Below are positions 2,125 to 17,998 of a DNA stretch of 64,000 nucleotides, one piece after another (the stretch's first letter is position 1; each line of letters starts with the position of its first letter). Both the position numbers and the translations under genes were made by a program. The stretch lies in NCBI GenBank assembly GCA_951406725.2, contig OX597825.1:49538001-49602000 (forward strand), in the 5' to 3' direction. Under the pieces are notes generated by a model. It saw nothing but the letters and a program-made list of their open reading frames with translations. It did no database searches and was not told where the DNA came from. Origin of the DNA: Octopus vulgaris. Its lineage: Eukaryota.

Positions 2125-2223
2125 TTCCTTGTCTTTCCTGATGAGAAGACGGCATAATGCACCCTTTATTCCTTCGGAATTAAGAATATGCAGTCTTCGA
2201 AACATATGTCGAGAATAAAGGAA
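2125..2223 (+). ncRNA. Type I hammerhead ribozyme motif
   Basis: CTGATGA 2138-2144; stem II GAAGAC/GTCTTC (2145-50/2193-98), extended by GCATA/TATGC; GAAA 2199-2202; palindromic stem III ACATATGT; GTC cleavage triplet 2208-2210; stem I TTCCTT-GTC-TTTC with GAGA-ATA-AAGGAA. Confidence 0.85.
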
Positions 2224-7714: not shown

Positions 7715-9430
7715 CTGACATTTACGATATCTGAACATCTCCCCAGCCGGCCTCCCGGCCGACAACGGTGGTGCTCTGGTGGTGTGGCGCGCTGACCTCC
7801 ACGAGGGGTAAGCTCTCCGCCAACTCAAGATCCCACGCCAACAGACGGTGTCCTCCACTATCCATGACCTCATCTCCTCCTCCACGTCTCCCCCACTGTC
7901 TCCAACTCCAACAATTTACTTTCTCCCAAAAATCCACAAACCTAACAACCCTGGCCGCCCCATTGTCTCCGCCTGCAACAGCCCCACCGAACTCATCACC
8001 ACATATCTTGACCATGTCCTCGCCGCCCGAATGGCTTCCCTCCCCTCTCACATCCATGACACCAACCATGCTCTTCGTCTGTACAACTCTTTCTCCTACT
8101 CTCCTGGCCCCTCTAAACTTCTCTTCACTCTTGACATCAAGAGCCTATATACGATGATCCCTCACCACAAGGAGCTTCGTGCGCTCCAACAATAACTTGC
8201 CCACTCACCGAACACCCAAATTGACACATACACATTTCTTTGTCTGGTCGAACTTGTTCTTTCCTTTAACTGCTTCTCTTTCGCGGGTGATTTCTACCAG
8301 GAGATCCCGGGAGTGGCCATGGGGAAGAGAATGGTTCCCAACTATGAGAACCTGTTCGTTGGCAACGTTGAAGCCCAAATATTCTCTAGTTTCATTGGTC
8401 CTACTCCCGAACTATATGTACGTTATTTTGACGACTGTATCGGTACGCCCTCACTCTCCCACGAACAACTAGATTCCTCTTCCGTCTAGTATTTCTATCC
8501 TGCCCACCATTTCTCCTGCACTATTTCAGACACTTCTGTCGCCTTTCTCGACATTTCGGTCAGCATTCATCACTCCACTCTCACCACCTCCATCCATTAC
8601 AAACACACAGACTCGCACTCATACCTCAACTTCTCCTCCTCGCACCCTAAACACACCAAGCTCTTCATCACCTATTCCCAATTCCCCCGTCTGCACAGGC
8701 TCTGCACTGACAACCTTGACTTTGAGTCTCAGTCTCAACTCATGGCTCGCCACTTCATCCTACGTAGAAATCCTCTCACCACCATCGACACCAACCTTTA
8801 CAGAGAATGTTCTGTGGACCATGGATCTGCTCTCTCCCCCCGCACCCGCACCGCCGTCACCCGTCTCCCTTTTCCCCTAACCTACCATTCTTCCACCTTA
8901 CCTCTACAACACATTCTTCTCAGAGCCTTCCGGCGATTTCAGTCAGACCCCTCTACTTTACACAATTTCCCTAATCGACCGCTCCCCTACATCAAACGTG
9001 ACCTCCTGCTCCACAGTTTCTTCCCTAACCCAACCTCCCAACCTGGATGTTCCCTTGTTCCCGTCCACACTGCCGCACTTGCCCATATCTCTCCAACACC
9101 ACTATCCTCACCGGCACCCATCATCCACCCTATCATATCACTGAGTCCTTCAACTGCACTTCTAGCAACGTAATCTAGTGCATTCTGCTGCTCTCTGTCC
9201 TTCTTTGTACATCGGTGAAACGGAACGCCGCTTGGCTGACCGGTTCGTGGAACACCTCCGAGACATCAGACTCGGCAACGACACCGGTCTCGCACCATTT
9301 CCTCTCTATTGGTCATTCTTTACATCACCTGTTTATGTTCGGATTGTCTTTGCGCAGGTGCCATCCGGACTCCCGTCTTCGCCGTGAGCAGAAATTAATC
9401 TCTCTTCACTTCTTTGCGTTACATCGGATC
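7715..9430 (+). pseudogene. Penelope-like retroelement RT + GIY-YIG, frameshifted
   Basis: PADNGGALVVW, YFLPKIHKPNNPGRPIVSACNSPT, LFTLDIKSLYTMIP, GVAMG, YVRYFDD, AFLDI, HYKHTDSHSYLNFSSSHP, LYIGETERRLADRFVEH; followed by a pyrimidine-rich 3' tail to ~9960. Confidence 0.92.
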
Positions 9431-10117: not shown

Positions 10118-13096
<2,979 letters not shown>

Positions 13097-14080: not shown

Positions 14081-14802
14081 TGGTTTTAAGGTGGGGGATT
14101 TAGATTTAAGTTCTGCTGTATTGAGAGATTTTATCGGTTAGACAGTCGCATAGACAAGTAGTCGCATAAAGACAGACAGACAATGCAAAGACAGACAGAC
14201 GCTCATTAATAATTTTATTCATGAGCACATAATCATGGGGCAACAGATGCACCGAATAAACAATATTAAACTTAACAATGCCTTTAGTAACACCATCACT
14301 GTTTCTGTTAGCGTGATTCCCAGGCTTAACCACCACAATAATAACCACAAGAACAACAAAAACAAAAGCAATAGTAGTTATCGTTGTAATTAATTATACC
14401 AATGTGAATCAAGGAACTTCATCACACGAAGTCCGTGATTCAAATTGGTCTAATTAATTACTTACAATAATAATAATTATCATTATTATTGTGGTGATTA
14501 AGCTTGGGAATCACGCTAACGGAAACAGCTGTGGGTTGAGATTTTGTCTTTTTGGTATTAATTAATAAAAGATAATTGATGAAAATCAATTGTTATTCAT
14601 CATTTTTATCTGCCTTTTCTGCTTTCCTCAAATATAACTGTTGTGTGGACGGCCCCAGACGATGAAGTAGACTAGCCGAATACGTAGATATAGAGGGAGA
14701 AGTCTAGAAGTCGGGAGTTGAGTAGAGGTCATCCGAACGTGCAATATAACAATAACGCACACACACATATATATATATATACATGCACACACATACATAT
14801 AT

Positions 14803-15298
14803 ATAATTAATCAATATAAGGGTAGCAAAAAAATCAATAGAAATTTTTTGGCCACCAGCGGTCTAGTGAGAAAGAAAAAATAGTCAACAGACTATATAAA
14901 GTACATTCAACAGTAATATTAAGGAATGGCCTTAATAGGCCATTCAACTCACTAAAGCGAGCAGCTAAACTCAAACCGCTAAATAGTAGTAATTCAGAAA
15001 TCAAAGGAAAATTTAAAATATTTACCCTAATCATCTTTGGACTATGCATAGTTTCAACGTACTTTTTAGCAAACCAGCCTAATTAAAATAAATTAAATTT
15101 AATCAAGTCAATTTACCACTGGCCCGTCTCATCGGCAAAGAAGCCAAGAGGAATAAATATTCCACGAGGCAACAGCATCGATGCCTTGGGAATATATACT
15201 CTAAATTTGATTTCTGAATTACTACTATTTAGCGGTTTGTGTTTAGCTGCTCGTTTTAGTGAGTTGAATGGCCTATTAACGCCATTCCTTAATATTAT

Positions 15299-15300
<2 letters not shown>
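14803..15300 (-). mobile_element. Diverged homolog of the 492-bp HHR repeat, with an inverted partial copy (14910-15005 vs 15206-15300)
   Basis: ATAATTAATCAATATA(A)GGGT.GCAAAAAAA...GCCACCAGCGG.CTAGTG...AATAGGCCATTCA...ATTTACCCT collinear with 17423-17660. Confidence 0.8.
15034..15141 (-). ncRNA. Type I hammerhead motif with one core substitution (CCGAUGA)
   Basis: Minus strand: stem I TCTTTG/CAAAGA; CCGATGA; stem II GACG/CGTT; GAAA; palindromic stem III ACTATGCATAGT; GTC triplet. Confidence 0.75.
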
Positions 15301-15354
<54 letters not shown>

Positions 15355-15360
<6 letters not shown>

Positions 15361-16930
15361 ATATTTCGGATTGGTCATTTTGCCAGTTTAGCCAATAAAA
15401 ACACACGCACTATATATTTGGTGTTACTTTGCTTCAGTGTTATTTATATTTTACGTTAATCTTAATCTTATTTCGGCCAAAGTTCTTTCGTCACACTCCT
15501 GTGACCGCATCAGTGGTCCTTTGTTTTCTTCTTTCTTATTTGTGTCTCCCCTTACTAACCGTCAGACATTTTGTATTTCTATTGTATGTCTTCATTTGCG
15601 CATGCTTATATCTCTATGTGCGTCTATGTTTATTTAGTGTGTGTGTGGGGGGAATGCCTGTAATATTTGTATCTTCTGTTTATATACGGTCATGTAATTT
15701 GTTTTTGTTGTTGTTGTTTTTGTTTATTTTTATTTTGTTCATGTGTTTACATCCACTTATTATTATCATTACATATGCTTGTATGTATGTATGTATAACA
15801 ACAATACTAGTAATAATAATAATAAATAAATAAAAATTTTAATTAAACAAAAACAAACATACTTATATAGTTATTTATTTCTATTTGTTTATTTATCTGT
15901 GTATTTTATTTATTATGTTTTCGGTTTTGTTTATATTGTTACCAGTTTATTGGGATCTTCTGCCGTTATATGTTGTAGTGTGTGCTAGTGTTCCATTCTA
16001 GTTTCCTATTCAGGCTAGGTTTATTTTCTATTATGTGTGTAGCTTCTGTAATTTTTCTGATTGTTGCATCTGTTCTATGTGTGGACAATATTTTAATTTC
16101 TATGTTGATTGATCCCCCGTGTTCCTGTTCGGCGTGTTGGTATAGAATCGATGAACTTTTACCTTCCTTGAGTTCTCTCCAATGTCCATTTACCCGCTCT
16201 CTTATGCTTCTTGCCGTTTCCCCTACGTATGTCGTTGTCTTGTTACTGCATCGTCCTTCTATACATCTTATACTATAGACTACATTTCTGGCTTTACAGT
16301 TTGTTTGAGGGCCAAATCTACATACAGTACAGTACTTATCCATACAGCGGGTTTTACTAAAAGGATAGGTTCTACCGATTATAGATTTGATAGGGTTGCC
16401 TGGCTTTTCAACAACCTTAATCCTTAGCTTAAGTTTGTCTAGGGCCCTTCTAAAGCGGTACGCCACTTCACATCCAGGGGTGGTGTCAACGAACATTACA
16501 CTCTGGTATTTATGGCTATCATACCAAGAGTTGGCCTTCCCTATTTTCTTCTTTTACTAGTAATAATAATAATAAATAAAAAATAACTTTTAAATTAAAC
16601 AAAAAAACATACTTATATAGTTATTTATTTCTATATGATTATTCATCTGTGTATTTTATTTATTGTTTTCGGTTTTGTTTATATTGTAACCAGTTTATTG
16701 GGATCCTCTACCGTCATATGTTGTGGTGTGTGCTAGTGTTCCAATCTAGTTTCCTATTCAAGCTAGGTTTATTTTCTATTATGTGTGTAGCTTCTATAAT
16801 TTTTCTGATTGATGCATCTGTTCTATGTGTGGACAATATTTTAACACTGAAGCCTAGTAACACCAAATATATAGTGCGTGTGATTTTATTGGCCAAACTG
16901 GCAAAATGACCATTCCGAAGTATAACAATA
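15355..16930 (-). mobile_element. 5'-truncated Penelope-like element with pLTR-type direct repeat (~15806-16093 vs ~16555-16842) and inverted terminal segment (15355-15442 vs 16842-16930)
   Basis: GIY-YIG ORF plus the direct and inverted duplications read in the sequence. Confidence 0.85.
15966..16496 (-). CDS. PLE C-terminal GIY-YIG endonuclease region (partial ORF)
   Basis: C..C..C..C linker; NVVYSIRC..YVGETARSIRERVNGH; RKITEATHI..KPSLN. Confidence 0.85.
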   Translation of the reverse strand: MFVDTTPGCEVAYRFRRALDKLKLRIKVVEKPGNPIKSIIGRTYPFSKTRCMDKYCTVCRFGPQTNCKARNVVYSIRCIEGRCSNKTTTYVGETARSIRERVNGHWRELKEGKSSSILYQHAEQEHGGSINIEIKILSTHRTDATIRKITEATHIIENKPSLNRKLEWNTSTHYNI

Positions 16931-16984
16931 TCTGTTTCAACACACGACTTCACATAAAATATCTTGCACAACAAATATATAAAC

Positions 16985-17040
<56 letters not shown>

Positions 17041-17160
17041 ACAATCAAGGAACGGTCATAATAGGCCATTCACCCACTAGAAATAACAGCCAAAGCTTCA
17101 ACCGCAAATAAAAATTAATTCCGTAAACCAGGAGAAAATTTAAAAAACATTTACCCTGTA

Positions 17161-17267
17161 ATTTCTTATACGATATACCGTTTCATCTGCTGATTAATGG
17201 TAAACTAACCTGATTACATTAAATCAAGCCAATCTTCCAGAGGCCCTCAGATTCTTCAGTAAGAAAT
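17161..17267 (-). ncRNA. Type I hammerhead ribozyme, copy 1
   Basis: Minus strand: stem I ATTTCTTA/TAAGAAAT (8 bp, perfect); CTGAAGA; stem II ATCTG/CAGAT with ~58-nt loop; GAAA; stem III CGGTATATCG (near-palindrome); GTA triplet, cut predicted between 17169 and 17168. Confidence 0.9.
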
Positions 17268-17652
17268 AGCCCAAGTCGGAACAGATATTTTCACGAGGCA
17301 TTTCCGACCTTGCCAAGGTTATATCTGACCTAAAATTTTCAAATCGTCGCACTCGCGCCAAATTTATCGGCAGCAAATAAATATAAGCCGTTGATTCCAT
17401 TACGGAATTAACCAGAAAATTCATAATTAATCAATATAGGGTGGCAAAAAAAATTTTGTAGAATTCTTTTGCCACCAGCGGCCTAGTGGGAAAAAATTAA
17501 ATAGTCATAGACCATTTTTAAGTTCAACATCAACAATCAAGGAACGGCCATAATAGGCCATTCACCCACTAGAAATAACAGCCAAAGCTTCAACCGCAAA
17601 TAAAAATTAATTCCGTAAACCAGGAGAAAATTTTAAAAACATTTACCCTGTA

Positions 17653-17759
17653 ATTTCTTATACGATATACCGTTTCATCTGCTGATTAATGGTAAACTAA
17701 CCTGATTACATTAAATCAAGCCAATCTTCCAAAGGCCCTCAGATTCTTCAGTAAGAAAT
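17653..17759 (-). ncRNA. Type I hammerhead ribozyme, copy 2
   Basis: Same core and stems as copy 1, offset by 492; cut predicted between 17661 and 17660. Confidence 0.9.
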
Positions 17760-17998
17760 AGCCCAAGTCGGAACAGATATTTTCACGAGGCATTTCCGAC
17801 CTTGCCAAGGTTATATCTGACCTAAAATTTTCAAATCGTCGCACTCGCGCCAAATTTATCGGCAGCAAATAAATATAAGCCGTCGATTCCATTACGGAAT
17901 TAACCAGAAAATTCATAATTAATCAATATAGGGTGGCAAAAAAAAATTTGTAGAATTCTTTTGCCACCAGCAGCCTAGTGGGAAAAAATTAAATAGTC

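Follow-up and report, generated by a model that had tools for sequence, protein, structure and literature searches.

A hammerhead core with C at position 4 as the consensus of a retrozyme lineage in Octopus vulgaris

Introduction

Does a hammerhead core that departs from the consensus mark a single dead copy, or can it be the ordinary state of a lineage that spread? The question is raised by a segment at 14803..15205 of a 64,000-nucleotide stretch of Octopus vulgaris DNA (contig OX597825.1; hereafter the window, whose numbering is used throughout), which carries on its minus strand a hammerhead fold with CCGAUGA in the place of CUGANGA. The first-pass annotation had taken this core for a probable inactivating change of the copy, and had held that the fold itself was under selection across at least two subfamilies.

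Results

A type I hammerhead in a truncated, two-armed insertion

A descriptor scan of both strands of the window placed the hammerhead on the minus strand, with its core at 15135-15129. Three stems surround this core and stem I is open, as in type I hammerheads. Stem I is made of TCTTTG (15141-15136) and CAAAGA (15039-15034), and stem II of GACG (15128-15125) and CGTT (15059-15056). Core positions C3 to A9 read CCGATGA, with C4 at 15134, and are completed by GAAA (15055-15052), the self-complementary stem III CTATGCATAG (15051-15042) and the site GUC (15042-15040), all on the minus strand; the cut is predicted between 15040 and 15039. Compared to the consensus CUGANGA/GAAA/NUH, the subfamily of this copy departs at position 4, and the remaining core positions conform. 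Folded by itself, this copy has a minimum-energy structure (z −1.59) that lacks stems I and III.

About 2 kb away, at 17037..17998 on the same strand, a sister subfamily is represented by a tandem array of 492-bp units, which is young and has canonical U4 hammerheads with their cores at 17751 and 17259. Its unit has stem I ATTTCTTA/TAAGAAAT, core CTGAAGA, stem II ATCTG/CAGAT, stem III CGGTATATCG and site GUA. The stems that had been quoted for the two elements, as differing and yet paired, are all present on the minus strand of both units, and the reported collinearity was confirmed, with 75% identity between 14803-15028 and 17423-17649 (E 3e-30) and 70% between full units of the C4 and 492-bp subfamilies. 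Rfam returned no hammerhead match for this copy or for its canonical U4 sister, at gathering score or with E up to 10, a miss likely due to the long loop II insertion.

The match to the hammerhead is not a chance one, as had been argued from the sister: a hammerhead descriptor combined with the downstream motif of the family found 3356 matches genome-wide (2.8 Gb), a few of which are unrelated chance sequence, versus 2 in a reversed control. Among the 3356, 150 are C4 and 5 have a purine at position 4; U4 subfamilies make up most matches today. Tandem spacings are 473-494 bp in both U4 and C4 subfamilies. Arrays reach 9 or more pure units, and the longest seen are U4.

The segment 14803-15303 is a two-armed insertion, in which a truncated minus-strand monomer is joined to an inverted arm. 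The long arm (14803..15205, minus strand) is a 5′-truncated retrozyme monomer of about 400 nt, out of a unit of 484-488 nt as measured on tandem relatives; it reaches the “long” 3′ end, adjoining TA repeats. The inverted second arm (15206..15303, plus strand) is a copy of 14893-15005, 92% identical, and stops at the “short” 3′ end. The two arms thus end at different fixed 3′ ends, about 100 nt apart, and relatives of the insertion follow a like plan with more units. The right flank is a (TA)n target microsatellite (15304..15355) and the left flank a shorter TA run (14768-14781). TA was present at one end at least in 84 of 87 bounded retrozyme insertions, and at both ends in 55, for a background of 5%. 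An 8-nt motif, GCCTCGTG, is almost invariant in all subfamilies and lies some 40 nt upstream of the core (about 15166-15173 here, minus strand). We concluded that 14803-15303 is an old, truncated copy of a protein-free mobile repeat with a hammerhead fold in its RNA.

C4 is the consensus of the subfamily

A DNA search of the genome was used to collect relatives. Scoring the best 40 of 2567 first-look candidates gave 30 loci; after removal of L024, a partial match, 29 loci provided 35 aligned hammerhead copies, this one included. All 35 BLAST-selected copies had C4, and the other core positions were kept in 33 to 35 of them. Exact 20-mers counted genome-wide occurred 63 times in the C4 version and 3 times in the U4 version. 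These two results rule out a private inactivating mutation: the subfamily consensus, proposed as a check with CUGAUGA in mind, is CCGAUGA, and the reading of this core as a defect of the copy does not stand. The copy does differ from the majority at four places in 141 nt. One of these lesions is a C11.1 to U change (15056) at the base of stem II, C11.1 being found in 33 of the 35 copies; judged from the alignment, the resulting G-U pair is a lesion of this copy.

Contigs of three public runs that are probably RNA, and of a fourth public run, also cover the C4 subfamily (one run bears another organism label). Among the rows listed, they show no variant at core positions, and both sides of a stem III pair change together at equal depth; they carry no information on level, strand, RNA ends or circles.

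The idea that each subfamily carries one handicap, either C4 with G10.1-C11.1 or U4 with a weak 10.1 pair, was rejected because 71 matches, from several subfamilies, are U4 with G10.1-C11.1. C4 with G-C at 10.1-11.1 accounts for 133 matches. As a separate observation, five U4 subfamilies (L078, L142, L144, L084 and L141) have an A-A or A-C mismatch at the first stem II position and nonetheless occur as near-identical dispersed and tandem copies.

Stem changes preserve pairing on internal branches of the C4 lineage

In an alignment of 27 hand-picked representatives, 98.3% of stem cells were paired and 8 of the 13 pairs had changed on both sides; sliding the partner strand as a control left 31 to 46% paired. 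The covariation score was reached by none of 500 shuffles and the number of two-sided pairs by 89 of 500, figures that are not probabilities, as the representatives are related to each other. An alifold of the whole unit gave two-sided changes in 11 of 115 predicted pairs, but stems I and II were misregistered in that alignment, which was set aside. A pattern free of the GAAA/GUH requirement, used as a control for core-based sampling, produced 1852 matches; by eye, both elements were present in all 100 listed.

A tree was then built with position 4 masked. Of the 138 hammerhead-bearing loci, two rearranged ones (L017 and L114) were dropped, and the other 136 correspond to 86 distinct copies. 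All 9 stem changes that fall on internal branches with a C4 core preserve pairing; five of these alter both partners, and they are spread over stem I (two), stem II (one) and stem III (two). Of the 24 changes on terminal C4 branches, 9 preserve pairing and 15 break a pair, with no two-sided case. The contrast is significant (Fisher p=0.0014), these being parsimony counts of few events on a midpoint-drawn tree, with one bulge removed by hand. Terminal C4 branches mostly record decay after insertion. For non-C4 branches the contrast between internal and terminal was not significant (14/5 versus 9/7, p=0.31), partly because several tips are lone representatives of a subfamily. Two-sided changes are seen both among the 27 representatives and on the tree of 86 copies, as the covariation check on a multi-copy alignment had called for. 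With 8 of 13 pairs two-sided and all internal C4 changes pair-preserving, the earlier claim of a fold selected across at least two subfamilies is supported.

Throughout the C4 lineage G5, A6, G8, A9, G12-A14, A15.1-U16.1 and the NUH site are fixed. A single origin of the position 4 states was rejected, since 6 changes are required on the tree, each of them imposed by branches that are well supported; three of these are single copies. One change separates the C4 ladder of subfamilies, to which this copy and tandem arrays of 473-474 bp belong, from the clade of the 492-bp unit and its near relatives, the tree being unrooted. Nested within this ladder are two multi-copy U4 clades: one descends from the subfamily of this copy, with stems I and III common to both, and the other is the L078 group. 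As far as these sequences tell, C4 is carried by a ladder of successive subfamilies that stayed paired while spreading, and U4 returned at least twice, founding new subfamilies.

Loop II, stem III and the predicted circle

The long stem II loop had been described as retained. The insertion is indeed present, but it is predicted to be a hairpin rather than an open loop: in this copy an AU/GU-rich hairpin of about 20 bp (15067..15118, minus strand) fills “loop II”, and a hairpin of this kind formed in 16 of 16 copies folded. Across representatives 91.7% of its positions were paired, with two-sided changes in 0 of 12 pairs. Covariation of this hairpin was rejected, its variation being one-sided and no better than in shuffles; the one-sided changes swap G-U with A-U or G-C on the minus strand.

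In 81 of 86 copies, the leader located 5′ of stem I (15142..15147 here, minus strand) can base-pair with the 5′ side of the stem II internal loop (15119..15124, minus strand), a test that 40% of shuffled loops pass too; the 3′ side of the loop pairs with the leader in 4 of 86. In the L078 clade both predicted strands have changed. A pseudoknot between stems I and II is predicted from such pairing, with the leader as its 5′ strand and the internal loop as its 3′ strand. Pseudoknots between these stems speed hammerheads (PMC3088659).

A self-complementary 10-nt stretch forms stem III in nearly all subfamilies. In this copy the predicted energy is +0.4 kcal/mol for the monomer hairpin and −15.9 kcal/mol for the dimer duplex. 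A like situation, with a palindromic stem III, is described for animal hammerheads that act as dimers (PMC4209133; PMC7229834). Twelve full units of 473-506 nt, folded as circles, gave z values of −3.9 to −7.8 (12 shuffles each).

A non-LTR retrozyme among Penelope-like elements

The element consists of tandem units of 473-494 bp, each with a type I hammerhead, and across 132 loci it shows no protein coding and no attached RT. It is dispersed, mobile and co-exists with Penelope-like elements (PLEs). On these sequence features it is a non-LTR retrozyme. No PLE ORF was directly attached in any of the 132 loci, with flanks mostly of 1.5 kb; 4 of them had a PLE protein match, in each case outside the unit span and beyond the TA run. 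The RT plus GIY-YIG ORF that autonomous EN+ PLEs hold between pseudo-LTRs is absent. The tandem/inverted layout, the tail at one end and the microsatellite target of EN+ PLEs are present, the tail being about 100 nt long in the present family versus 30-40 in the PLEs of PMC8557442, where tandem and inverted arms with two 3′ ends are the PLE insertion layout. By this analogy, the retrozyme is likely moved by PLEs. A sequence link with the 3′ regions of two PLE families was sought and none was found (28 to 122 of 200 shuffles scored as high); comparison with the PLE next to the retrozyme and with the one at 1317-2415 gave nothing above shuffles either, and homology to both was rejected.

The neighbour, at 15357..16975 (minus strand), is a separate insertion flanked by TA left and right. 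It is an autonomous PLE in truncated form, with a GIY-YIG C-terminus (16553-15966), a duplicated end (16844-16555) and an inverted piece (16842-16975). It is a candidate for the type of mobiliser of the retrozyme. Its family is abundant, and it is young, since many copies score identically. The open frames are 1312 codons long, and the linker, C-x4-C-x2-C, is of the Neptune/Nematis type. Pfam gave E 0.0019, below cutoff, for the fragment, and no match for the full protein. Two such frames (L133, at G000:C1:59391500-59401400, and L134) hold an RT, a C-terminal GIY-YIG and a long Asn/Ser-rich insert, and this family too has two 3′ ends, about 55 nt apart. The young PLE 3′ end (15513-15473, minus strand; L118-L136) contains a minimal hammerhead-like motif in which C replaces A at position 9. 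The motif consists of CUGAUGC, a stem GUCAC/GUGAC and GAAA, and is nearly unchanged in 24 occurrences. From its sequence, CUGAUGC would be another case of a non-consensus core that became fixed, here in a family that is apparently active.

Other elements of the window were noted in passing. From 14768 to 17998, the C4 retrozyme, the autonomous PLE fragment and the U4 retrozyme array lie end to end with (TA)n between them, which is repeated use of one microsatellite target by three PLE-type insertions. A second hammerhead family is found at 2134-2216 (plus strand, core at 2138), with a canonical CUGAUGA, a palindromic CATATG and a 6-bp stem II holding a 42-nt insertion. It lies about 590 nt downstream of the GIY-YIG C-terminus of a PLE (1317-1553), and therefore a long loop II occurs in a coding PLE too; this family has 3243 first-look candidates, and an endonuclease fragment was present in 12 of 25 loci. 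A decayed third PLE at 8490-9400 (plus strand), which Pfam did not match, was recognised by eye from RT thumb and GIY-YIG motifs, and 10709-12338 (minus strand) is occupied by the broken RT of a non-LTR retrotransposon (RVT_1, E 1e-17).

Discussion

Relation to known hammerheads

Retrozymes and U4C are each already known; the part that may be new is U4C as a genomic lineage, of which we found no report in the literature on hammerhead ribozymes, including, by the titles listed, that on octopus. Animal non-LTR retrozymes (Cervera & de la Pena 2020, PMC7229834; Li, Clavereau & Pollet, bioRxiv 10.64898/2026.07.22.740005) are likewise non-coding, low-GC tandem units with one type I hammerhead each, dispersed from monomers to multimers; they too have a highly paired predicted circle and a self-complementary helix III, and co-exist with PLEs. 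Compared to these, the present family, known from genomic sequence, has a 473-494-bp unit and carries 55-70 nt inserted in loop II; a predicted Watson-Crick pseudoknot takes the place of the loop 1/loop 2 contacts that are usual, and one of its lineages has a non-consensus core. The hammerheads of PLE pseudo-LTRs (Cervera & de la Pena 2014, PMC4209133) share the type I form, the palindromic helix III, the predicted action as dimers and the insertion layout. They are, however, minimal motifs attached to an RT/GIY-YIG ORF, whereas the present family has no ORF and combines a 4-bp helix III and a 6-8-bp helix I with a long helix II extension. Base pairing between stems I and II as tertiary contact is shared with the pseudoknot-stabilised hammerheads of Perreault et al. 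2011 (PMC3088659), but in the present family the predicted stem II partner is one side of an internal loop under a 15-20-bp hairpin.

The same core change is documented as a natural variant in a viroid (Ambros & Flores 1998, cited in PMC3088659). U4 changes are described as lowering activity in vitro; in the viroid, U4C was reported to be much less active in vitro and yet to suffice in vivo and allow infectivity. The viroid case is a single variant of a plant pathogen; here C4 is fixed in a genomic retroelement lineage of several subfamilies, with repeated return of U4. Pairwise mutagenesis of another hammerhead gave low activity for all single CUGA-turn changes (PMC9901934), core variants are tolerated differently from hammerhead to hammerhead (PMC3884650), and tertiary contacts have been proposed to offset variant cores (PMC3088659).

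Proposed mechanism and alternatives

We favour, with moderate confidence, the view that the segment is a two-armed retrozyme copy of a C4 lineage whose core still cut, at a probably reduced rate. Tandem copies would be transcribed, as in known retrozymes, and their hammerheads would cut at GUC. They would likely do so as dimers joined by the self-complementary stem III, with help from the predicted stem I/stem II pseudoknot. The 473-494-nt monomer would then likely be circularised. A Penelope-like element would supply the RT and the GIY-YIG endonuclease that copy the circle into (TA)n, and such copying may yield head-to-tail arrays and the inverted second arm. C4 would be tolerated at some cost and would readily revert, because it sits in a CpG, where mutation back to U is easy. 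That the core likely still cut is argued from the fixed catalytic letters and from the viroid precedent. Counting against cleavage by C4 cores are the small share of C4 (just 150 of 3356 matches, the longest arrays seen being U4), the weakness of CUGA-turn mutants, and the mostly uncut Xenopus dimers, 8 of 9 of which showed no cleavage in vitro (bioRxiv 10.64898/2026.07.22.740005).

A bolder reading, which we hold to be doubtful, is that the lineage spread through many successive subfamilies with a barely cutting or non-cutting hammerhead, all three stems being rebuilt by selection. The fold would then be a handle for the Penelope-type RT or for circle formation, and the C-to-U returns would record a natural fitness test of cleavage rate.

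We regard it as unlikely that the C4 core is dead or nearly so and that the fold was kept for some other task, such as recognition by the PLE RT or a ligase, or RNA stability, tandem genomic copies making cleavage dispensable. The low activity of CUGA-turn changes in the mutational scan (PMC9901934) would agree with this, as would the repeated return of U4, whose subfamilies dominate the count, and the unclear function of hammerheads in EN+ PLEs, where Naiads spread without canonical ones (PMC8557442). However, the positions from G5 to the NUH site listed above are fixed, as catalysis would need, and U4C supported viroid infection (PMC3088659).

Cleavage in trans, in which the C4 RNA would form a dimer with a U4 relative of identical stem I and palindromic stem III and be cut by the enzyme half of that relative, has in our estimate little chance of being right. 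Suitable partners exist, since one U4 subfamily has TCTTTG/CAAAGA and CTATGCATAG in common with this copy and another has CAATGCATTG in common with other C4 subfamilies, and predicted energies strongly favour dimers over monomer hairpins. Yet the C4 enzyme half, stem II and core, is itself maintained on C4 branches, and the matching U4 subfamily derives from the C4 one, so that it provides no rescue of its ancestors.

It is equally hard to credit that the units are pseudo-LTRs of 5′-truncated copies of an unsampled autonomous PLE. The layout and (TA)n target are PLE-like, Xenopus retrozymes are related to PLE pLTRs (bioRxiv 10.64898/2026.07.22.740005), and the PLE elsewhere in the window carries a hammerhead with a long loop II; against these stand the 0 of 132 loci with a directly attached PLE ORF (flanks mostly 1.5 kb), the arrays of up to 9 or more pure units, and the absence of similarity to the 3′ regions of the two PLE families.

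Last, that the paired changes came from DNA-level hairpin repair or from drift in a few master copies, free of RNA selection, is highly improbable: the independent events are few (5 two-sided changes on C4 branches) and stem III is a short DNA palindrome, but 60-95 nt separate the partners of stems I and II, the one-sided loop II changes keep to G-U, A-U or G-C on the minus strand, and the core letters are fixed.

Significance

The role of hammerheads in PLEs and retrozymes is an unsettled question (PMC8557442). Elements of this kind are missed by strict CUGANGA descriptors and by Rfam models. The family supplies natural, near-matched C4/U4 pairs of known copy number, in which stems I and III are identical and one member derives from the other. 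Cleavage of such C4/U4 pairs would tell whether fast cutting, slow cutting or the fold alone suffices for a retrozyme to spread.
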